A stretch of 64,000 nucleotides of DNA from the NCBI RefSeq assembly GCF_046105845.1, contig NZ_CP151004.1, one strand, 5' to 3'. This DNA comes from Escherichia coli (GTDB lineage: Bacteria; Pseudomonadota; Gammaproteobacteria; Enterobacterales; Enterobacteriaceae). The position numbers were made by a program, and so were the translations under genes. The first letter of the stretch is position 1; every line of letters starts with the position of its first letter. Below, in pieces: positions 1,991 to 63,394 of the stretch. The notes under the pieces were generated by a model. That model did not search any database, was not told where the DNA came from, and saw only the letters and a program-made list of their open reading frames with translations.

Positions 1991-3324
1991 AAAACATTAT
2001 CCGAACTCCCGAAACGCATCCGCTGACCTGGCGTCTGCGCGATGACAAACAGCCAGTGTGGCTGGACGAATACCGCAGCAAAAACGGTTACGAAGGCGCG
2101 CGTAAGGCGCTGACCGGGCTGTCTCCGGACGAAATCGTTAATCAGGTAAAAGACGCTGGTCTGAAAGGGCGCGGCGGCGCGGGCTTCTCGACTGGCCTGA
2201 AATGGAGCCTGATGCCGAAAGACGAATCCATGAACATCCGTTACCTGCTGTGTAACGCGGATGAAATGGAGCCGGGCACCTATAAAGACCGCCTGCTGAT
2301 GGAGCAACTGCCGCACCTGCTGGTGGAAGGTATGCTTATCTCCGCGTTTGCGCTGAAAGCGTACCGTGGCTACATCTTCCTGCGTGGCGAGTATATCGAA
2401 GCGGCAGTGAATCTGCGCCGTGCCATTGCCGAAGCCACCGAAGCGGGTCTGCTTGGCAAAAACATTATGGGAACAGGTTTCGACTTCGAATTGTTCGTCC
2501 ATACAGGGGCTGGGCGCTACATCTGCGGTGAAGAAACAGCGTTAATCAACTCCCTGGAAGGGCGTCGCGCTAACCCACGCTCGAAGCCTCCATTCCCGGC
2601 AACCTCCGGTGCATGGGGCAAACCGACCTGTGTCAATAACGTCGAAACCCTGTGTAACGTTCCGGCGATCCTCGCTAACGGCGTGGAGTGGTATCAGAAC
2701 ATCTCGAAAAGTAAAGATGCTGGCACCAAGCTGATGGGCTTCTCCGGTCGGGTGAAAAATCCGGGCCTGTGGGAACTGCCATTCGGCACCACCGCACGCG
2801 AGATCCTCGAAGATTACGCCGGTGGTATGCGTGACGGTCTGAAATTCAAAGCCTGGCAGCCAGGCGGTGCTGGTACTGACTTCCTGACTGAAGCGCACCT
2901 TGACCTGCCGATGGAATTCGAAAGTATCGGTAAAGCGGGAAGCCGTCTGGGTACGGCGCTGGCGATGGCGGTTGACCATGAGATCAACATGGTGTCGCTG
3001 GTGCGTAACCTGGAAGAGTTTTTCGCCCGTGAGTCCTGCGGCTGGTGTACGCCGTGCCGTGACGGTCTGCCGTGGAGCGTGAAAATTCTGCGCGCGCTGG
3101 AACGTGGCGAAGGTCAACCGGGCGATATCGAAACACTTGAGCAACTGTGTCGATTCTTAGGCCCGGGTAAAACTTTCTGTGCCCACGCACCTGGTGCAGT
3201 GGAGCCGTTACAGAGCGCCATCAAATATTTCCGCGAAGAATTTGAGGCGGGAATCAAACAGCCGTTCAGCAATACCCATTTGATTAATGGGATTCAGCCG
3301 AACCTGCTGAAAGAGCGCTGGTAA
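1987..3324 (+). CDS. nuoF: NADH-quinone oxidoreductase subunit F (NADH/FMN binding, 4Fe-4S)
   Basis: 445 aa; [10 protein letters not shown] and [12 protein letters not shown] motifs; ATGA overlap with nuoE. Confidence 0.95.
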
Positions 3325-55698: not shown

Positions 55699-57984
55699 TC
55701 AGATCTTACATGCGCCGCTTTCGCAGCCATCGTCCTGGATTGACGGCACCAGATCGTCTTGTGCGTCTTCAGCACCGTCACGGGTGTTCTGATAATACAG
55801 CGTTTTAACCCCGAATTTGTAGGCGGTGAGCAGGTCTTTCAGCAGTTGCTGCATCGGCACTTTTCCTGACGGGAAGCGTGACGGATCGTAGTTGGTGTTA
55901 GCAGAGATCGACTGATCGATAAATTTCTGCATGATACCCACCAGTTGCAGATAGCCATCGTTACCCGGCATTTCCCACAGCAGTTCATAGGCGTCGTGCA
56001 GATGCTCGTAGTCCGGCACCACCTGGCGCAGAATACCGTCTTTCGACGCTTTGATGCTGACGTAACCACGCGGCGGTTCAATACCGTTAGTGGCGTTAGA
56101 GATCTGCGAAGAGGTCTCGGACGGCATCAGAGCAGAAAGCGTGGAGTTACGCAGGCCGTGCGTTTTGATTGACTCACGCAGTGCTTCCCAGTCGTAATGC
56201 AGCGGCTCATTAGCGATGGCATCCAGATCTTTCTTATAGGTATCGATCGGCAGGATCCCTTTCGCGTAAGTGGTTTCGTTAAACCACGGGCACGCGCCTT
56301 GCTCTTTCGCCAGCTCATTAGAGGCTTTCAGCAGGTAATACTGAATCGCTTCGAAGGTTTTATGCGTCAGGTTGTTGGCGCTGCCGTCGGAGTAGCGTTT
56401 ACCGTGCTTCGCCAGGTAGTAAGCGAAGTTGATCACTCCAATACCCAGCGTACGACGACCCATCGCTCCACGTTTGGCGGCCGGGATCGGGTAATCCTGA
56501 TAGTCCAGCAGCGCGTCGAGTGCGCGTACCGCCAGAATCGCCAGCTCTTCCAGTTCATCAAGGCTGTTAATTGCGCCCAGGTTGAAAGCAGACAACGTAC
56601 ACAGCGCGATTTCACCGTTCTCGTCGTTGACATCATTCAGCGGTTTGGTCGGCAGGGCGATTTCCAGGCACAGGTTAGACTGGCGCACTGGCGCGATGGC
56701 CGGATCAAACGGGCTATGGGTATTGCAGTGGTCAACGTTCTGAATATAGATACGACCGGTAGACGCACGTTCCTGCATCATCAGCGAGAACAGCTCAACG
56801 GCTTTCACACGCTGCTTGCGGATGCTGTCGTCTTTCTCATATTTGGTGTACAGGCGTTCAAACTCTTCCTGATCGGCGAAGAACGCGTCGTACAGCCCCG
56901 GTACGTCGGACGGGCTGAACAGGGTGATATCTTCACCTTTCAGCAGACGGGTATACATCAGTTTGTTGATTTGTACCCCGTAGTCCATATGACGCACGCG
57001 GTTGCCTTCCACCCCACGGTTGTTTTTCAACACCAGCAGGCTTTCCACTTCCAGATGCCACATCGGGTAGAACAGCGTAGCCGCACCGCCACGCACACCG
57101 CCCTGAGAGCAGGATTTCACCGCTGTCTGGAAATGCTTATAGAACGGAATACAACCGGTATGGAACGCTTCGCCACCGCGAATCGGGCTACCCAGCGCAC
57201 GAATACGCCCGGCATTGATGCCGATCCCGGCACGCTGGGAAACGTATTTAACAATCGCGCTGGAGGTGGCGTTAATGGAATCCAGGCTGTCACCGCACTC
57301 GATCAGTACGCAGGAGCTGAACTGACGAGTCGGGGTACGCACGCCGGACATGATTGGCGTCGGCAGCGAAATTTTAAATGTGGAAACCGCGTCGTAAAAA
57401 CGCTTCACGTATTGCAGGCGCGTTTCACGCGGGTAGTTCGAGAACAGGCACGCGGCAACCAGAATATAAAGGAACTGGGCGCTTTCGTAGATTTCGCCGG
57501 TCACACGGTTCTGCACCAGATATTTGCCTTCCAGCTGCTTAACGGCAGCATAAGAGAAGGTCATATCACGGTCGTGATCGATAAACGTGTCCATCTGCTT
57601 GAACTCTTCTTCCGTGTAGTCTTCCAGCAGATGATTATCGTATTTGCCCATCTCGACCATTTTCACCACGTGGTCGTACAGCGCAGGCGGCTCAAACTGG
57701 CCGTAGGCTTTTTTACGCAGGTGGAAGATTGCCAGGCGCGCGGCGAGATACTGATAATCCGGCGCATCACGGGAGATCAGGTCTGCGGCAGCCTTGATAA
57801 TGGTTTCGTGGATGTCAGAGGTCTTGATACCGTCATAAAACTGAATGTGGGAGCGCAGTTCGACCTGGGAAATCGAAACGTTATGCAGTCCTTCTGCCGC
57901 CCAATCCAGAACGCGATGGATTTTGTCGAGATTGATGCGCTCTGTGCTACCGTCGCGCTTTGTCACCAGCAGATTCTGATTCAT
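55699..57984 (-). CDS. nrdA: Ribonucleotide reductase class Ia alpha subunit
   Basis: 761 aa; N-terminal ATP-cone, C-terminal redox tail CESGACKI. Confidence 0.97.
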
Positions 57985-58061
57985 GTATGTCGTACCTGTT
58001 TTTGGAATTCTTTCCGCAATAGTTTCGTGCAGACTACCTGTAGTACGGGAAGCTGCTTAGA

Positions 58062-58108
58062 ACACTATATATAGGGGGTATGTTTGGGATTCACTGCAAG
58101 ATAGTGTG
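58062..58108 (-). promoter_or_regulatory. Candidate NrdR boxes upstream of nrdA
   Basis: ACACTATATATAGGG and CACTGCAAGATAGTGTG resemble the NrdR palindrome acaCwAtATaTwGtgt; exact boundaries uncertain. Confidence 0.45.
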
Positions 58109-58137
58109 AAAATGGCCCTCTTGCAAGTGCATAACTT

Positions 58138-58146
58138 TGTGGATAA
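58138..58146 (-). promoter_or_regulatory. DnaA box in nrdAB promoter region
   Basis: TGTGGATAA on plus strand = TTATCCACA consensus on minus strand. Confidence 0.55.
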
Positions 58147-58679
58147 CTCAGGAAGGAAAAAGTGGCTTTCGCGCACCTTAGGTCAGACAAGGTGTCCGGG
58201 AAAGTCAATGGGAAGAGAAAAATTTGTTAAAAATAACTGTTCGGCGATTTCTTGAACGGAAGAATAGGTTAGATAAATTGATATAGATGGTTTATTAATC
58301 TTTTGGCTAATGATTGCAAAAATTGATCTAAGCACGAATCATCGCATAATCTGATGTATCAGTTCTGGTCAATATATAAGCGAATGTAAGCGATTGTTGA
58401 TATCGAAATGGTTGTTTTCTCTTCGGTTATTGTTAAATGCGAAGCCATTTTGTTAATTTACCTTATATTATAAGAAAATTATTCATTACTTTAATTCAGT
58501 TTAAATATAACTAATATCCCTTAAGGTGATTAACTTGAATTATGACGCACTGATATTATTCATGAAATAATAACAAAATAGCCATTGCACGGGGTTGAAC
58601 AATTTACAAAAGAAAAATAACCCATATCGTATAATGCGATTAAATATGCCGTCTTATAGAAAATGATGGTCAGATTAAT

Positions 58680-61600
58680 ATGCGGATTATTTTTCTACGC
58701 AAGGAGTATTTATCTTTACTCCCGTCAATGATTGCGTCTCTTTTCTCTGCTAACGGTGTCGCGGCGGCCATTGATTTATGCCAGGGATATGATATCAAAG
58801 CGAGTTGTCACGCCAGCAGGCAAAGCCTTTCAAGCTTTACGCAGGACTGGAGCATCGCCGATGGGCAATGGCTGGTTTTTTCGGATATGACTAATAACGC
58901 CAGCGGTGGGGCCGTATTTTTGCAACAAGGAGCGGAGTTTTCTCTATCGCCAGAAAATGAAACTGGAATGACTCTGTTTGCCAATAATACTGTCTCAGGA
59001 GAATATAATAACGGCGGGGCAATATTTGCTAAAGAAAACTCAACGCTGAATCTTACTAATGTTATTTTTTCCGGTAACGTTGCAGGTGGCTATGGTGGCG
59101 CAATCTATTCTTCTGGTACTAACGATACCGGTGTCGTCGATTTAAGTGTCACTAACGCCGTGTTTCGCAATAACATCGCTAATGACGGCAAAGGTGGTGC
59201 AATTTATACCATCAACAATGACGTCTATTTAAGTGAAGTTATTTTTGACAATAACCAGGCATATACATCAACAAGTTACAGTGATGGCGATGGGGGCGCA
59301 ATCGATGTCACCGATAATAATAGCGATATCACGCATCCGTCAGGTTTCACAATAATAAATAACACCGCATTTACAAATAACACTGCCGAAGGTTATGGCG
59401 GGGCAATTTATACCAATAGCGTGACGGCTCCCTATCTTATTGATATTTCGATTGATGACAGCTACAGCCAGAACGGCGGCGTGTTAATCGATGAGAACAA
59501 TAGCGCGGCAGGTTATGGGGATGGTCCTTCCACTGCGGCGGGCGGCTTTATGTATCTCGGCTTAAGTGAAGTTACCTTTGATATTGCCGACGGAAAAACG
59601 CTGGTTATCGGCAATACAGAGAATGACGGAGCTGTTGACTCTATTGCTGGTACCGGGGTAATCACCAAAACAGGTTCCGGCGATCTGGTACTTAATGCAG
59701 ATAACAATGACTTTACTGGCGAGATGCAGATAGAAAACGGTGAGGTTACCCTGGGTCGCAGCAACTCCCTGATGAATGTCGGCGATACGCATTGCCAGGA
59801 CGATCCGCAAGACTGCTACGGTCTGACGATAGGGAGTATTGATCAGTATCAGAATCAGGCTGAGCTAAACGTTGGCTCGACCCAACAAACTTTTGTGCAC
59901 GCATTGACGTGCTTTCAGAATGGCACTTTAAATATCGATGCTGGTGGCAATGTTACTGTTAATCAAGGCAGTTTTGCTGGCACCATCGAAGGTGCTGGTC
60001 AGCTCACCATTGCGCAAAACGGCAGCTACGTGCTGGCAGGGGCACAGTCGATGGCGCTAACCGGCGATATAGTGGTGGATGCTGGTGCGGTGCTTTCGCT
60101 GGAAGGCGACGCGGCAGATCTTGCCGCTCTCCAGGACGATCCGCAGTCGATCGTGTTAAACGGCGGTGTGCTTGATCTCTCTGATTTCGCCACCTGGCAG
60201 AGCGGCACATCATACAACGATGGCCTTGCAGTCAGCGGCAGCGGCGGTACGGTTATCGGCAGTCAGGATGTGGTGGATCTCGCAGGTGGCGACAATTTGC
60301 ATATCGGCGGCGACGGGAAAGATGGCGTCTACGTGGTGATCGATGCGGGCGACGGGCTGGTTAGCCTGGCAAACAATAATAGTTACCTGGGCACCACGCA
60401 AATCGCTTCCGGTACGCTGGTGGTGAGCGACAACTCGCAGCTTGGAGATACCCATTACAACCGCCAGGTTATCTTTACCGATAATCAACAAGAAAGCGTG
60501 ATGGAGATTACTGCCAATGTCGATACTCGCTCTACAACGACTGAGCATGGGCGTGATATTGAAATGCGCGCCGACGGTGAAGTGGCAGTTGATGCGGGGG
60601 TAGACACGCAGTGGGGCGCACTGATGGCTGACAGCAGCGGGCAGCATCAGGATGAGGGTAGCACATTGACGAAAACGGGGGCGGGTACGCTGGAGCTGAC
60701 CGCCAGCGGTACAACGCAGTCGGCGGTACGTGTCGAAGAAGGCACCCTGAAAGGTGATGTTGCGGATATCCTTCCTTATGCTTCGTCACTGTGGGTTGGT
60801 GATGGGGCAACGTTCGTTACTGGCGCGGATCAGGATATTCAGTCAATTGATGTTACTTCCAGCGGCACTATCGACATCAGCGATGGTACGGTTTTGCGCC
60901 TGACCGGGCAGGATACTTCCGTCGCACTTAATGCCTCACTGTTTAACGGCGATGGGACGCTGGTGAATGCCACCGATGGCGTGACGTTGACAGGCGAGCT
61001 TAATACCAACCTTGAAACTGACAGCCTGACTTATCTTTCCGACGTAACAGTTAATGGCAATCTGACCAATACGTCCGGTGCGGTCAGCCTGCAAAATGGC
61101 GTCGCTGGCGACACGCTGACGGTAAACGGTGATTATACCGGCGGTGGTACGCTACTGCTCGATAGCGAATTAAACGGCGATGACTCGGCAAGTGACCAAC
61201 TGGTGTTGAACGGTAATACTGCTGGCAACACGACCGTGGTAATTAATCCCATTACGGGTATTGGTGAGCCGACATCTACAGGCATTAAAGTGGTTGATTT
61301 CGCAGCCGATCCAACGCAGTTTCAAAACAATGCGCAATTCAGTCTGGCAGGCAGCGGCTACGTCAATATGGGAGCATATGACTACACGCTGGTGGAAGAT
61401 AACAACGACTGGTATCTGCGATCGCAAGAAGTAACGCCACCATCGCCACCTGATCCAGACCCGACTCCCGATCCTGATCCCACGCCGGATCCTGATCCAA
61501 CACCCGACCCGGCCCCGGACCCTACGCCTGCCTACCAGCCGGTGTTGAATGCCAAAGTTGGTGGATATTTTAATAACCTGCGGGCGGCAAATCAGGCGTT

Positions 61601-62438
61601 TGTGATGGAGCGACACGATCACGCTGGTGGCGATGGTCAGACGCTGAATTTACGTGTTATCGGCGGAGATTATCATTACACAGCAGCGGGGCAACTGGCT
61701 CAGCATGAAGACACTTCTACGGTGCAGCTTAGCGGCGACTTGTTTAGCGGGTGCTGGGGCACGGATGGCGAGTGGATGCTTGGGGCGGTTGGTGGCTACA
61801 GTGATAACCAGGGCGACAGCCGCTCGAATATGACCGGAACTCGCGCCGATAACCAGAACCACGGTTATGCCGTTGGTCTGACCTCAAGCTGGTTTCAGCA
61901 CGGTAATCAGAAGCAGGGGGCCTGGCTGGATAGCTGGCTGCAATACGCGTGGTTTAACAATGATGTTTCCGAACATGAAGATGGCGTGGATCATTACCAC
62001 TCATCGGGGATTATCGCCTCGCTGGAAGCCGGGTATCAGTGGTTACCGGGGCATGGAGTGGTGATTGAACCACAGGCGCAGGTGATTTATCAGGGCGTGC
62101 AGCAGGATGATTTTACAGCCGCTAACCATGCGCGCGTGTCACAATCGCAGGGCGATGATATTCAGACGCGGCTGGGTTTACACAGCGAATGGCGTACCGC
62201 TGTTCATGTCACACCAACATTAGATCTGAATTATTATTACGATCCCCATTCGACGAAAATTGAAGAAGATGGCAGCACTATCAGTGACGAAGCGGTAAAA
62301 CAACGGGGGGAAATAAAAGTGGGAGTCACGGGCAATATCAGTCAGCGAGTGTCCCTGCGTGGTAGCGTGGCGTGGCAGAAAGGGAGTGATGATTTTGCCC
62401 AGACGGCAGGGTTTTTGTCGATGACGGTGAAATGGTAA
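58680..62438 (+). CDS. yfaL: AIDA-I-type autotransporter adhesin
   Basis: 1252 aa; extended signal region; passenger rich in G/N/T beta-helix-type repeats; Pro/Asp/Thr linker; C-terminal beta-barrel ending in KW. Confidence 0.9.
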   Translation: MRIIFLRKEYLSLLPSMIASLFSANGVAAAIDLCQGYDIKASCHASRQSLSSFTQDWSIADGQWLVFSDMTNNASGGAVFLQQGAEFSLSPENETGMTLFANNTVSGEYNNGGAIFAKENSTLNLTNVIFSGNVAGGYGGAIYSSGTNDTGVVDLSVTNAVFRNNIANDGKGGAIYTINNDVYLSEVIFDNNQAYTSTSYSDGDGGAIDVTDNNSDITHPSGFTIINNTAFTNNTAEGYGGAIYTNSVTAPYLIDISIDDSYSQNGGVLIDENNSAAGYGDGPSTAAGGFMYLGLSEVTFDIADGKTLVIGNTENDGAVDSIAGTGVITKTGSGDLVLNADNNDFTGEMQIENGEVTLGRSNSLMNVGDTHCQDDPQDCYGLTIGSIDQYQNQAELNVGSTQQTFVHALTCFQNGTLNIDAGGNVTVNQGSFAGTIEGAGQLTIAQNGSYVLAGAQSMALTGDIVVDAGAVLSLEGDAADLAALQDDPQSIVLNGGVLDLSDFATWQSGTSYNDGLAVSGSGGTVIGSQDVVDLAGGDNLHIGGDGKDGVYVVIDAGDGLVSLANNNSYLGTTQIASGTLVVSDNSQLGDTHYNRQVIFTDNQQESVMEITANVDTRSTTTEHGRDIEMRADGEVAVDAGVDTQWGALMADSSGQHQDEGSTLTKTGAGTLELTASGTTQSAVRVEEGTLKGDVADILPYASSLWVGDGATFVTGADQDIQSIDVTSSGTIDISDGTVLRLTGQDTSVALNASLFNGDGTLVNATDGVTLTGELNTNLETDSLTYLSDVTVNGNLTNTSGAVSLQNGVAGDTLTVNGDYTGGGTLLLDSELNGDDSASDQLVLNGNTAGNTTVVINPITGIGEPTSTGIKVVDFAADPTQFQNNAQFSLAGSGYVNMGAYDYTLVEDNNDWYLRSQEVTPPSPPDPDPTPDPDPTPDPDPTPDPAPDPTPAYQPVLNAKVGGYFNNLRAANQAFVMERHDHAGGDGQTLNLRVIGGDYHYTAAGQLAQHEDTSTVQLSGDLFSGCWGTDGEWMLGAVGGYSDNQGDSRSNMTGTRADNQNHGYAVGLTSSWFQHGNQKQGAWLDSWLQYAWFNNDVSEHEDGVDHYHSSGIIASLEAGYQWLPGHGVVIEPQAQVIYQGVQQDDFTAANHARVSQSQGDDIQTRLGLHSEWRTAVHVTPTLDLNYYYDPHSTKIEEDGSTISDEAVKQRGEIKVGVTGNISQRVSLRGSVAWQKGSDDFAQTAGFLSMTVKW
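61447..61530 (+). repeat. Tandem imperfect 18-bp repeats encoding (PDPDPT)n linker inside yfaL
   Basis: Protein segment PPSPPDPDPTPDPDPTPDPDPTPDPAPDPTP; DNA repeats of GATCC(A/T)GA(C/T)CC(G/C)AC(T/G/A)CC. Confidence 0.7.
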
Positions 62439-62457
62439 TCGCTGTCTGACCGGCACT

Positions 62458-62575
62458 ATTGCCGGATGCGGCGTAAACGCCTTATCTGGCCTACGGAGAG
62501 CATTTGTAGGCCTGATAAGACGCGGCAAGCGTCGCATCAGGCATTGGCACGGTTGCCGGATGAATCCAAACAACA
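62458..62575. repeat. REP/BIME cluster between yfaL and ubiG
   Basis: GCCGGATGCGGCGTAAACGCCTTATCTGGCCTAC and GTAGGCCTGATAAGACGCGGCAAGCGTCGCATCAGGC palindromic units. Confidence 0.6.
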
Positions 62576-62578
62576 ACC

Positions 62579-63301
62579 TCACTTATTCTGCGTGTGCAGC
62601 ATATAGTTCACATCAACGCCGGGGCCGAGCTTAAAGGAATTAGTGATCGGGTTGTAATGCAGCCCAGTGATATGCCGCTCTTTTAAACTGGTCTGATCCA
62701 CCCAGCCCAGCAGCTCTGCCGGTTTAATAAACTTCTTCACATCATGCGTACCTTTGGGCACCATGCGCAAAATATATTCCGCGCCAACCACCGCCATCAG
62801 CCATGACTTGCCGTTGCGGTTAAGCGTTGAGAAAAAGACATCGCCGCCCGGTTTCACCAGTTGCGCACAGGCTCTGACCACTGACTGCGGATCGGGCACG
62901 TGCTCCAGCATCTCCATGCAGGTCACCACATCATACTGCCCGGCATGTTTTGCCGCGTGCTCTTCCACGGTTTCCTGCACGTACTCTACCTGAATGCCAC
63001 TTTCCAGCGCGTGCAACTTTGCCACCTGCAATGGCTCAAAGCCCATATCCAGACCGGTCACCGTCGCGCCTTCGCGCGCCATACTCTCGGCCAGAATGCC
63101 GCCGCCACAACCGACATCGAGCACCTTTTTGCCAAATAAACCGCCAGCACGCTCGGCAATATAGCCCAGACGCAGCGGGTTAATGCGGTGCAGCGGTTTG
63201 AACTCACCTTCAAGATCCCACCAGCGGGAGGCGACAGCTTCAAATTTAGCGATCTCTTCGTGGTCTACGTTATGGTTTACCGGCGATTTTTCGGCATTCA
63301 T
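62579..63301 (-). CDS. ubiG: Ubiquinone biosynthesis O-methyltransferase
   Basis: 240 aa from [10 protein letters not shown]; SAM motif [13 protein letters not shown]. Confidence 0.93.
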
Positions 63302-63394
63302 TGGCACTTCTACTCCGTAATTGGCAAGACAAACGAGTATATCAGGCATTGGATGTGAATAAAGCGTATAGGTTTACCTCAAACTGCGCGGCTG

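Follow-up and report, generated by a model that had tools for sequence, protein, structure and literature searches.

Organization of the nrdA-yfaL spacer

The long intergenic spacer between nrdA and yfaL in Escherichia coli raises the question of how much of it serves the control of ribonucleotide reductase (RNR), and what the remainder, on the yfaL side, may hold. We analyzed this spacer within a 64,000-nucleotide stretch of the E. coli chromosome (hereafter the window); on the K-12 map, the gene order at this locus is gyrA-ubiG-yfaL-ypaB-nrdA-nrdB. The genes nrdA (55699-57984, minus strand) and yfaL (an adhesin gene, 58680-62438, plus strand) flank a spacer of 695 bp (57985-58679) with a GC content of 0.34, compared to 0.515 for the whole window, which bears out the AT-rich divergent region described in an earlier interpretation of the letters alone (referred to as the sequence-only reading). 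The whole spacer is present in 5422 of 5426 complete E. coli genomes.

The spacer falls into two units that differ in origin and in function, with the junction at about 58257. The first (57985-58257) is the long-studied control region of nrdAB, the main RNR operon of E. coli, and the second is an AT-rich flank of yfaL reported to be coated by H-NS. We hold this two-part reading with high confidence. The motif coordinates, the constraint on the proximal unit, the neutrality of the distal unit, the conservation across genera and the insertion junction were computed in this study, while protein binding and regulatory effects are taken from the literature.

Constraint on the nrdA-proximal unit

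The divergence from K-12 at third codon positions of nrdA (6.2%) was used as the neutral rate. At this rate, about 17 differences from K-12 are expected in the proximal 275 bp, and two are found (P = 4e-6): a C for T two bases past NrdR box 2, and a C/T difference between the -35 and -10 hexamers. All motifs named below are identical to those at the same locus in K-12. The distal 420 bp hold 24 of the 26 spacer differences (about 5.7% divergence), in agreement with neutrality (P = 0.39). Among E. coli records, the proximal part is at least 99% identical in 3821, whereas the distal part is just 80-95% identical in most. The proximal 275 bp are thus under strong purifying selection. We further compared 80 Enterobacterales nrdA upstream regions, and found that in Yersinia, Serratia, Hafnia, Dickeya, and Edwardsiella the DnaA box, the -35 and -10 hexamers, NrdR box 1, and the left half of NrdR box 2 all align.

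Promoter core, leader, and upstream elements

On the minus strand, a -35 hexamer TTGCAA (58121-58126) is separated by 17 bp from a hexamer TATCTT (58098-58103), whose role as the -10 of the nrdAB sigma-70 promoter follows from its spacing and the literature. The sequence around the -10 (CACTATCTTG) is kept in 21 of 21 aligned sequences of what we term type U, and that around the -35 (CACTTGCAA) is kept in type U genera. Based on promoter geometry and on published descriptions of a historical NrdR box (box 0) as covering the -10 and the start, we infer that transcription starts near 58094; this promoter would then fire into an untranslated nrdA leader of about 110 nt (57985-58094, minus strand). 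Just before the nrdA ATG, a block ACAGGTA (57991-57997), conserved across 79 orthologs in the upstream comparison, is probably the ribosome-binding region.

Further upstream are two published boxes for HusR (YnfL) from the ypaB/nrdA genomic-SELEX peak (PMC12844172), which we located by sequence match: CACTTTTTCCTTCCTG at 58149-58164 on the minus strand and CAGACAAGGTGTCCGG at 58184-58199 on the plus strand. They are followed by a conserved upstream activating region (58198-58257, minus strand) consisting of an ATTGAC block (58204-58209), T-tracts (58213-58241), and GTTCAAGAAATCG (58245-58257), all of which are conserved in both promoter types across the Enterobacteriaceae. This region is likely the place of the published Fis sites and the AT-rich cis-element. 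The literature on nrdAB names DnaA, Fis, IciA, and HusR as regulators, and H-NS and NrdR as repressors; Fis, IciA, and HusR would activate the operon from these conserved upstream blocks, and H-NS would repress it. Further regulators had been anticipated by the sequence-only reading, and Fis, IciA, H-NS, and HusR, which are published to act upstream of nrdA, answer to that description. A 45-bp inverted repeat has been published as needed for cell-cycle control, and our repeat search of the region returned just short AT-rich inverted repeats and the direct repeat formed by the DnaA boxes.

DnaA boxes upstream of the -35

A motif scan with the 9-mer consensus TTATNCACA confirmed the perfect DnaA box TTATCCACA at 58138-58146 (minus strand) that had been proposed upstream of nrdA, a site at which DnaA binding and regulation are published. 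A second box, TTATGCACT (58126-58134, minus strand), matches the consensus at 8 of 9 positions, lies 3 bp downstream of the perfect box as part of a direct repeat (D2), and abuts the -35. A DnaA-regulated promoter is expected to carry one or more such 9-mers, and both lie just upstream of the nrdA -35. According to published work, DnaA-ADP or low DnaA-ATP aids RNA polymerase at nrdAB, while DnaA-ATP at high levels oligomerizes over the -35 and represses. On this model, DnaA would occupy the two 9-mers, centered about 48 and 36 bp upstream of the nrdAB start, and its nucleotide state would tie dNTP synthesis to replication initiation.

Among the 80 upstream regions, 27 have a perfect DnaA box at the homologous place, while in 50 the DnaA boxes are downstream of NrdR box 1 instead of upstream of the -35. 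The loss of a promoter-proximal position in orthologs, which the sequence-only reading had named as grounds for doubt, thus does occur for DnaA, albeit in the qualified form of a displacement past box 1. This displaced layout, which we refer to as type D, is found in Salmonella, Citrobacter, Klebsiella, and Enterobacter (the Salmonella sequence was taken from chromosome fragments filed as plasmids). Type D promoters share with E. coli the homologous upstream blocks (GAAGAAATC, T-tract, and ATTGAC), as well as a box 0 and a near-invariant box 1 with a homologous 16-bp linker. They differ from E. coli in their -35 and -10 hexamers (TTGTAC and TAGAAT), in lacking NrdR box 2 and yfaL, and in having three DnaA boxes in the leader, which are located, counting from the start of box 1, at +16 (TTATCCACA), +28 (TTAGTCACA), and +46/47 (inverted TGTGGATAA). 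The E. coli layout therefore differs from that of its closest relatives, which matters when results on the control of dNTP synthesis by DnaA are carried over to Salmonella or Klebsiella.

NrdR boxes in the leader

An NrdR operator consists of two partly palindromic 16-bp boxes (acaCwAtATaTwGtgt) with a C at position 4 and a G at position 13, joined by a linker of 15-16 bp. When the window was scanned with the consensus ACACWATATATWGTGT allowing up to 3 mismatches, the sole match was box 1 (CCCCTATATATAGTGT, 58062-58077, minus strand), the main recognition box, with 2 mismatches and both C4 and G13; 0.53 matches are expected by chance. Two weaker boxes flank it on the same strand, each with 6 mismatches and both C4 and G13: box 2 (GTACTACAGGTAGTCT, 58031-58046), which has a central AG and lies 15 bp downstream of box 1, and box 0 (TCACACTATCTTGCAG, 58094-58109), the historical prediction, which overlaps the -10 and the start and whose position 6 is a C where the consensus has an A. 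Box 1 and box 2 are thus joined by a linker of the expected length, and the NrdR boxes are 47-125 bp upstream of the nrdA ATG, in the promoter and leader of an RNR operon where such an operator is expected. With C4, G13, and up to 5 mismatches, box 1 occurs in every one of the 80 upstream regions, so that for this box no displacement of the kind seen for DnaA was found.

Which two boxes form the operator has been revised by recent work. The interval proposed by the sequence-only reading (58062-58108) includes box 1, which is real; its pairing, however, is the older one of box 0 with box 1, and box 2 lies outside it. Box 0 plus box 1 was the formerly accepted prediction (Rodionov and Gelfand, 2005; Torrents, 2007, as represented in papers citing them), under which the pair (58094-58109 and 58062-58077) would occlude RNA polymerase, and the 16 bp between them are a canonical spacing. 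Moreover, Citrobacter, Klebsiella, Enterobacter, and Salmonella have a far better box at the box 0 position (ACTCACCATATAGCGT, 4 mismatches), and in Salmonella mutation of either NrdR box is reported to have raised expression. In E. coli, however, NrdR binds a box 1+2 probe with a KD of about 113 nM and a box 0+1 probe with a KD of more than 6000 nM, and mutation of box 1 abolishes binding (PMC12176259). E. coli box 0 is very weakly bound and, beyond its 6 mismatches, carries its C at the critical position 6, where a C6A change gave a ten-fold higher affinity (PMC12176259; 2026 preprint). We consider it improbable that box 0 and box 1 are the operator in E. coli.

The NrdR site of E. coli is box 1 and box 2 according to the work of 2025-26, with which the 2026 preprint agrees, and box 0 is not part of the bound pair. 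The window has the same site: its box 2 has exactly the sequence of the corresponding oligonucleotide in PMC12176259, and the box 1+2 oligonucleotide matches it save for one flanking base. E. albertii retains the box 2 core (CACTAC..GTAG), and a conserved ACACTAC/T found in Yersinia, Serratia, and related genera lines up with the left half of the box. With box 1 and box 2 as the operator, an NrdR tetramer loaded with ATP and dATP would bind both boxes (about +18 to +33 and +49 to +64, respectively) within the transcribed leader, and would repress nrdAB when dATP is plentiful. Because Citrobacter, Klebsiella, Enterobacter, and Salmonella have no box-2-like partner after box 1, box 0 and box 1 are probably the working pair in these genera and on the plasmid copies described below.

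Taken singly, each of these motifs should turn up about 0.5 times by chance in 64 kb and is not significant alone; for instance, TTATCCACA occurs once in the window with 0.46 expected, and 37 of 100 shuffles contain at least one copy. It might be supposed, then, that the DnaA and NrdR motifs are functionless chance matches, an explanation to which we give a negligible probability. The motifs are grouped within 120 bp ahead of an RNR gene, with box 1 in 80 of 80 and a perfect DnaA box in 27 of 80 of the regions compared, and we therefore regard them as more than chance. For the DnaA boxes the case lies in this conservation at the homologous place and in the DnaA boxes that 50 of the 80 regions carry at another position. 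Across an entire bacterial order the motifs keep their homologous places, in a region under strong purifying selection, and published binding and genetics support their function; the conservation and the binding data together already refute the chance explanation. The dNTP-responsive and replication-coupled control of nrdA that the sequence-only reading had drawn from these motifs is likewise in print, as DnaA and NrdR are both known to act at these places. The observation of this control region is real but ordinary, its biology (DnaA, NrdR, Fis, IciA, H-NS, and HusR) being already known and published.

The annotated ORF ypaB

RefSeq annotates a 47-aa ORF, ypaB (58112-58255, plus strand), antisense to the nrdA promoter, so the description of the roughly 500 bp toward yfaL as free of ORFs holds for the distal part (58256-58679, no ORF of at least 30 aa) but not here. 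If ypaB were a genuine coding gene, the conservation of 58112-58255 might be due to it instead of to regulatory DNA, which we consider unlikely. Besides its annotation in RefSeq genomes, the 47-aa frame is uninterrupted in both E. coli and a Pseudocitrobacter assembly even though 15 amino acids have changed, it has counterparts in P1 (UpfO) and P7 (Upf91.6), and a HusR-dependent ypaB mRNA has been measured (PMC12844172). Yet in E. albertii the frame is truncated after 17 aa, its C-terminus varies among phage copies, and YpaB matches no Pfam or NCBIfam family. The conserved stretch runs past the ORF on both sides and matches the positions of the DnaA and HusR boxes, the -35, and the upstream blocks, which are kept in genera where the ypaB frame is not. 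A CRISPRi phenotype of ypaB has also been attributed in the literature to the nrdA promoter that ypaB contains. ypaB is probably not a real protein gene, although the report of its HusR-dependent mRNA means that some antisense transcription across the nrdA promoter may be real.

The AT-rich flank of yfaL

Homology to genera without yfaL stops at about 58257. In about 65 of 80 loci ubiG is directly upstream of nrdA, and yfaL is found in just 4 of 80. By this comparative evidence, yfaL and its AT-rich flank appear as a horizontally acquired insertion between ubiG and nrdA, and the flank (58258-58679, 29% GC; GC 0.29 in 58256-58679) as its nrdA-side end. It overlaps a published H-NS-bound promoter island, 2342143_534 (yfaL/ypaB), one of 78 such islands and H-NS-bound in all ChIP studies compared (Panyukov and Ozoline, 2013), which corresponds to about 58195-58728 after conversion of the coordinates in this analysis. 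A simple consensus scan found 7 promoter-like sites in the spacer compared to 3.6 +/- 1.6 in shuffles, a modest excess. A putative sigma-70 promoter facing yfaL was found by consensus scan at 58323-58350 (TTGATC-16-CATAAT, plus strand), and a genomic-SELEX catalogue gives the same hexamers for the yfaL/nrdA spacer on its yfaL side, with H-NS marked. The flank is thus AT-rich, adjacent to a foreign gene, and enriched in promoter-like sites, as expected of an H-NS-silenced promoter island, and its island is tied to predicted foreign genes (Panyukov and Ozoline, 2013); its H-NS occupancy is taken from the literature. We see no difference in kind between those islands and the distal spacer, the promoter-site excess being modest here by a simple scan. 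H-NS would coat 58258-58679, and the promoter-like sites may bind RNA polymerase but yield little full-length RNA, so that the yfaL adhesin gene would be kept silent.

The sequence-only reading had suggested that this part may hold a small RNA. That 58258-58679 encodes an unrecognized small RNA or small protein could be argued from the several promoter-like sites on both strands of the distal 420 bp, from the constitutive RpoD promoter reported there in the genomic-SELEX catalogue, and from short blocks shared by divergent yfaL alleles and genera (TTACATTCGCT..AT.ATGA.CA near 58366-58390, and TTGTAA near 58603). These blocks, however, are equally well explained as promoter or operator elements of yfaL. 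A small RNA gene would be recognized by a family match, or by a promoter and terminator with above-neutral conservation, and the distal spacer presents neither: an Rfam search of 57500-59200 gave no match at E<=1, a terminator scan of the spacer found no terminator-like site, and divergence from K-12 is at the neutral rate. The longest ORF in 58256-58679 is 29 aa, and published catalogues list the region as a promoter island covered by H-NS and making just 9-14-nt abortive products. For these reasons the suggestion of a small RNA was not sustained, and we regard an unrecognized small RNA or protein here as very unlikely.

We weighed the idea that the distal spacer falls into two deep E. coli haplotypes and set it aside, as the very divergent allele in question (L007) resembles E. 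albertii. Alleles like that of L007 are absent from the 5422 complete E. coli genomes, in which the distal spacer is always at least 80% identical.

Phage and plasmid copies of the promoter module

A segment of the control region, from the -10 to about 148 bp upstream of the start (58101-58241), is common to P1/P7-like and SSU5-like phage-plasmids. The "nrdA-like promoter" of P1 (GenBank M95666; NC_005856), which P1 records annotate with a dnaA box, is 83% identical to 58101-58241, and the P7 copy is 94-95% identical. Both phage copies include the two DnaA boxes and the -35. Unlike the chromosomal version, the phage copy ends at the -10 and thus does not contain NrdR boxes 1 and 2. Its NrdR-like box over the -10 (TTTCTACATATTGTGG) is a better one, and the copy faces an unannotated hydrophobic ORF of 45 aa (in P1) instead of an RNR gene.

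Copies of the nrdA promoter module are also found in other enterobacterial plasmids, some conjugative, IncFIB, or RepB, from Escherichia, Salmonella, Citrobacter, Enterobacter, Kosakonia, Klebsiella, and Leclercia. Their type tends to follow that of the chromosomal promoter in the plasmid's host genus: E. coli-type copies have the DnaA boxes, and Citrobacter/Enterobacter-type copies have an intact pair of box 0 and box 1.

In all 10 modules examined, small hydrophobic ORFs of 26-45 aa, similar to type I toxins, are located 270-420 nt downstream on the same strand. One of these peptides is DinQ-like, with an AgrB-like antisense RNA near threshold. Pfam and NCBIfam searches with the small peptides and YpaB turned up a single hit, below threshold: the peptide from Leclercia scored 15.3 bits to DqlB, a DinQ-like toxin, where the cut-off is 35. 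An ORF of 117 aa annotated in L090 has no family match and is not conserved in related plasmids. For the ORF-poor module of 700 bp that follows the plasmid copies, a ColE1-like RNAII/RNAI origin was weighed and set aside, because no small Col plasmid shares the module, its match to RNAI falls below threshold, and it contains conserved small ORFs.

We tentatively propose that the nrdA promoter module may be a portable cassette of about 140-225 bp, with the upstream activating blocks at one end and the -10 or NrdR box 1 at the other, that wires membrane-toxin modules to the host's NrdR and DnaA sensors of dNTP levels and replication, a possibility that in our estimate falls somewhat short of an even chance.

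Implications

For E. coli, the published promoter elements and regulator boxes of nrdAB are now placed on exact coordinates of the window, and the outdated pair of NrdR boxes is replaced, which is of value for annotation. The portable cassette, if real, would parallel the dinQ and tisB toxins, which LexA controls, but would act independently of the SOS response. If confirmed, it would mean that mobile elements borrow a dNTP- and replication-responsive promoter of their host to control small toxin-like peptides, and this would outweigh the other results presented here.

Regulatory sites in the nrdA-yfaL spacer

The window is a piece of E. coli chromosome carrying the gene order gyrA-ubiG-yfaL-ypaB-nrdA-nrdB-yfaE of the K-12 map, reversed in the window. 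The 695-bp spacer at 57985-58679, between nrdA (55699..57984, minus strand) and yfaL (58680..62438, plus strand), was found in 5422 of 5426 complete E. coli genomes (top identity 99.6%), and has a GC content of 0.34 (0.29 in 58256-58679; 0.515 in the window). The sequence-only reading had described the gene positions, the AT-richness and the location of the motifs correctly. The feature is already known, and the interpretation placed on it is supported in part.

The DnaA box TTATCCACA (58138-58146, minus strand) occurs once in the window, and a second box, TTATGCACT, with an 8/9 match (58126-58134, minus strand), abuts the -35 element TTGCAA (58121-58126, minus strand), which is 17 bp from the -10 element TATCTT (58098-58103, minus strand). 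A motif scan of the 64-kb window gave 58062-58077 as the sole match to the NrdR consensus with three or fewer mismatches. About 0.5 matches per 64 kb are expected by chance for the DnaA and the NrdR motif, each taken singly; the significance of these sites therefore comes from their clustering, conservation and literature rather than from individual matches. DnaA-box-like 9-mers are present in the window at chance level (6 found, 5.4 expected); a further one, TTATTCACA, lies at 63354-63362 (minus strand), just upstream of the ubiG ORF (62579-63349, minus strand) and toward gyrA.

In the literature, DnaA is described as binding the nrdAB promoter via two nucleotide-indifferent boxes and one DnaA-ATP-specific box, with activation or repression depending on the DnaA level and bound nucleotide. 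Published work also names Fis and IciA as activators and H-NS and NrdR as repressors, and states that cell-cycle control of nrdAB requires a 45-bp inverted repeat together with an AT-rich element located upstream. A 2026 paper added HusR (YnfL) as a regulator (PMC12844172), and we located its published boxes at 58149-58164 (minus strand) and 58184-58199 (plus strand).

The interval proposed as NrdR boxes by the sequence-only reading, 58062-58108, corresponds to the pair predicted in 2005-2007. In current nomenclature these are box 1 (58062-58077, minus strand) and box 0 (58094-58109, minus strand, over the -10 and start site), while box 2, GTACTACAGGTAGTCT (58031-58046, minus strand), lies 15 bp downstream of box 1. 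The KD of NrdR is 113 nM for boxes 1 and 2, versus >6000 nM for boxes 0 and 1 (Rozman Grinberg et al., FEBS J 2025; PMC12176259), so one of the two proposed boxes, box 1, is the key box, whereas its true partner is not box 0 but box 2, on the opposite side of box 1. According to a 2026 preprint, box 0 fails because of a C at position 6.

Conservation of the promoter and two DnaA layouts

For a comparison across genera we assembled 80 nrdA loci from genomes of Enterobacterales species (L007-L086, our records of these loci) and examined the 350 bp in front of each nrdA start codon; 79 of the loci retained the upstream region and entered the comparison. NrdR box 1 is present in every region compared, while the DnaA boxes occur in two layouts. 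In 27/80, a perfect DnaA box lies upstream of the -35, 69-79 bp upstream of box 1; this group (Escherichia, a Pseudocitrobacter assembly, Yersinia, Serratia, Hafnia, Dickeya, Brenneria, Rahnella, Edwardsiella and others) aligns with E. coli at the DnaA box, CACTTGCAA, CACTATCTTG, box 1, and ACACTAC/T at the box 2 position. In 50/80 (Citrobacter, Klebsiella, Enterobacter, Kluyvera, Kosakonia, Pantoea, Erwinia, Mixta and others), the DnaA boxes lie directly downstream of box 1 in the leader, the -35 and -10 differ, and box 0 is a much better match. Salmonella, examined separately, has this second layout as well. The Escherichia layout differs from that of its nearest relatives. Given the universal box 1 and the two DnaA layouts, the possibility that the motifs fall outside the promoter-proximal region in orthologues does not hold for NrdR; for DnaA it holds in part, as the boxes themselves are conserved but where they sit with respect to the promoter depends on the lineage.

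Within E. coli, 26 of the 695 spacer positions differ between the window and K-12, 24 of them in 58260-58679 and only two in 57985-58259. Taking the divergence at nrdA third codon positions (6.2% between the window and K-12) as the neutral rate, the nrdA-proximal part is depleted of differences about nine-fold (P = 4e-6), whereas the distal part has diverged as expected under neutrality (P = 0.39). In the E. coli population, the proximal 275 bp reach 99% identity or more in 3821 records, and the distal 420 bp are mostly 80-95% identical. A common variant (L087 801-1062) has 91.6% identity over the proximal 275 bp; it lacks 13 bp, CGGAAAGAATTCC, of the nrdA leader (58004-58016), and the first two bases of its box 2 are TC rather than GT, while the remaining motifs are intact.

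The conserved part includes ypaB, annotated in RefSeq as a 47-aa ORF (58112-58255, plus strand). E. coli and the Pseudocitrobacter assembly keep the full ORF, but in E. albertii (L008) it is truncated to 17 aa, although the DNA there is still conserved; its phage counterparts, P1 UpfO and P7 Upf91.6, differ at the C-terminus. The product has no protein family match, and the conserved DNA reaches past the ORF and coincides with the regulatory motifs. Judged by these comparisons, ypaB is probably not a protein gene. Antisense transcription across the nrdA promoter has been reported in the literature.

The distal AT-rich stretch and the yfaL insertion

Most loci of the Enterobacterales set have ubiG upstream of nrdA in the same orientation, at a distance of 350-550 bp; just four carry yfaL, namely those of E. 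coli, E. albertii, the Pseudocitrobacter assembly, and strain RIT691. Compared with L009-L086, the segment made up of yfaL and its AT-rich 5' flank is a ~4.2-kb insertion between ubiG and nrdA (window ~58257 and 62439-62578). Homology to the yfaL-less genera and the low E. coli polymorphism stop at the same point, ~58257; the distal stretch is therefore the nrdA-side end of this insertion. The record titled E. coli strain SCPM-O-B-8794 (L007) carries a yfaL allele at 80% amino-acid identity; its yfaL and distal spacer (L007 4296-5003) resemble those of E. albertii (L008 4297-5003), unlike those of the 5422 complete E. coli genomes, and this strain may be a member of a cryptic Escherichia lineage.

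The distal stretch has been catalogued among 78 E. coli "promoter islands" (2342143_534, yfaL/ypaB). This island is bound by H-NS in every ChIP data set compared and is linked to predicted foreign genes; as a class, such islands form open complexes, yet make only short abortive RNAs. In a genomic-SELEX catalogue, TTGATC-16-CATAAT is entered as a constitutive RpoD promoter directed toward yfaL, with H-NS marked there; our window scan placed it at 58323-58350 (plus strand). The suggestion of a small RNA in the AT-rich part fared poorly: in the distal spacer, Rfam returned nothing, the terminator scan found no candidate site, and the longest ORF is 29 aa, and it is for these reasons very unlikely that the stretch encodes a small RNA or a small protein.

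Mobile copies of the nrdA promoter

The nrdA promoter core at 58101-58241 (from the -10 to a point ~148 bp before the start site, including both DnaA boxes) matches 246 plasmid records. About 240 of them are true plasmids, P1/P7-like and SSU5-like phage-plasmids of Escherichia, Salmonella, and Shigella, mostly IncY P1/P7-like at 94-95% identity. Identity is 83% for P1, 82-84% for SSU5-like elements (pLF82, phage Cyrano), and 99.3% for one plasmid; copies lie, for example, at L002 4001-4141, L004 1501-1615, L006 1501-1629, and L096 3001-3139 (phage or plasmid records). These mobile copies are partly known, since an "nrdA-like promoter" with a dnaA box is already annotated in P1 records; we did not find that phrase in the literature searched.

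With the Citrobacter-type region as query, we found a corresponding set of some 25 plasmids, hosted by Citrobacter, Enterobacter, Kosakonia, Klebsiella, Leclercia, and Atlantibacter and including P1-like, SSU5-like, conjugative, IncFIB, and RepB types. These Citrobacter/Enterobacter-type copies (plasmid records L088 3995-4215, L090 2501-2708, L091 2501-2674, L092 2501-2700, L093 2501-2663, and L094 2501-2665) extend from GAAGAAATC through box 1 and stop right after it, with boxes 0 and 1 intact and 15-16 bp apart and the linker diverged. Of the four copies that match better, three are most similar, within the set, to the chromosome of the genus that hosts them and not to another plasmid copy (e.g., 92% for a C. 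freundii plasmid and Citrobacter, 86% for an Enterobacter plasmid and Enterobacter); the fourth, on a K. pneumoniae plasmid, is nearest to an Enterobacter plasmid copy (91%).

Downstream of the mobile copies, on the same strand, an ORF-poor leader of 270-420 nt is followed by small hydrophobic ORFs (minus strand: L004 1094-1231, L006 1093-1230, and L002 3603-3737; plus strand: L090 3076-3162 and 3187-3267, plasmid record L097 3139-3222, and L094 about 2997-3092). A 45-aa ORF is present in 13/13 matching P1-family phage records, P1 and P7 among them; in P1 it is unannotated and partly antisense to upfM. Other plasmids encode one or two peptides of 26-28 aa (e.g., MQMLLLFLKLAHPVAVIIMTLLGYWKDR), and Leclercia a DinQ-like 31-aa peptide with a sub-threshold match to the DqlB model, adjoined by an AgrB match (38.6 bits; gathering score 40). 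In one peptide family, substitutions are distributed 35:17:49 by codon position, the pattern expected for coding sequence. We hypothesize that the small ORFs downstream of these nrdA-like promoters are putative type I toxin modules, and it is the mobile promoter copies, rather than the chromosomal region, that represent the most novel candidate.
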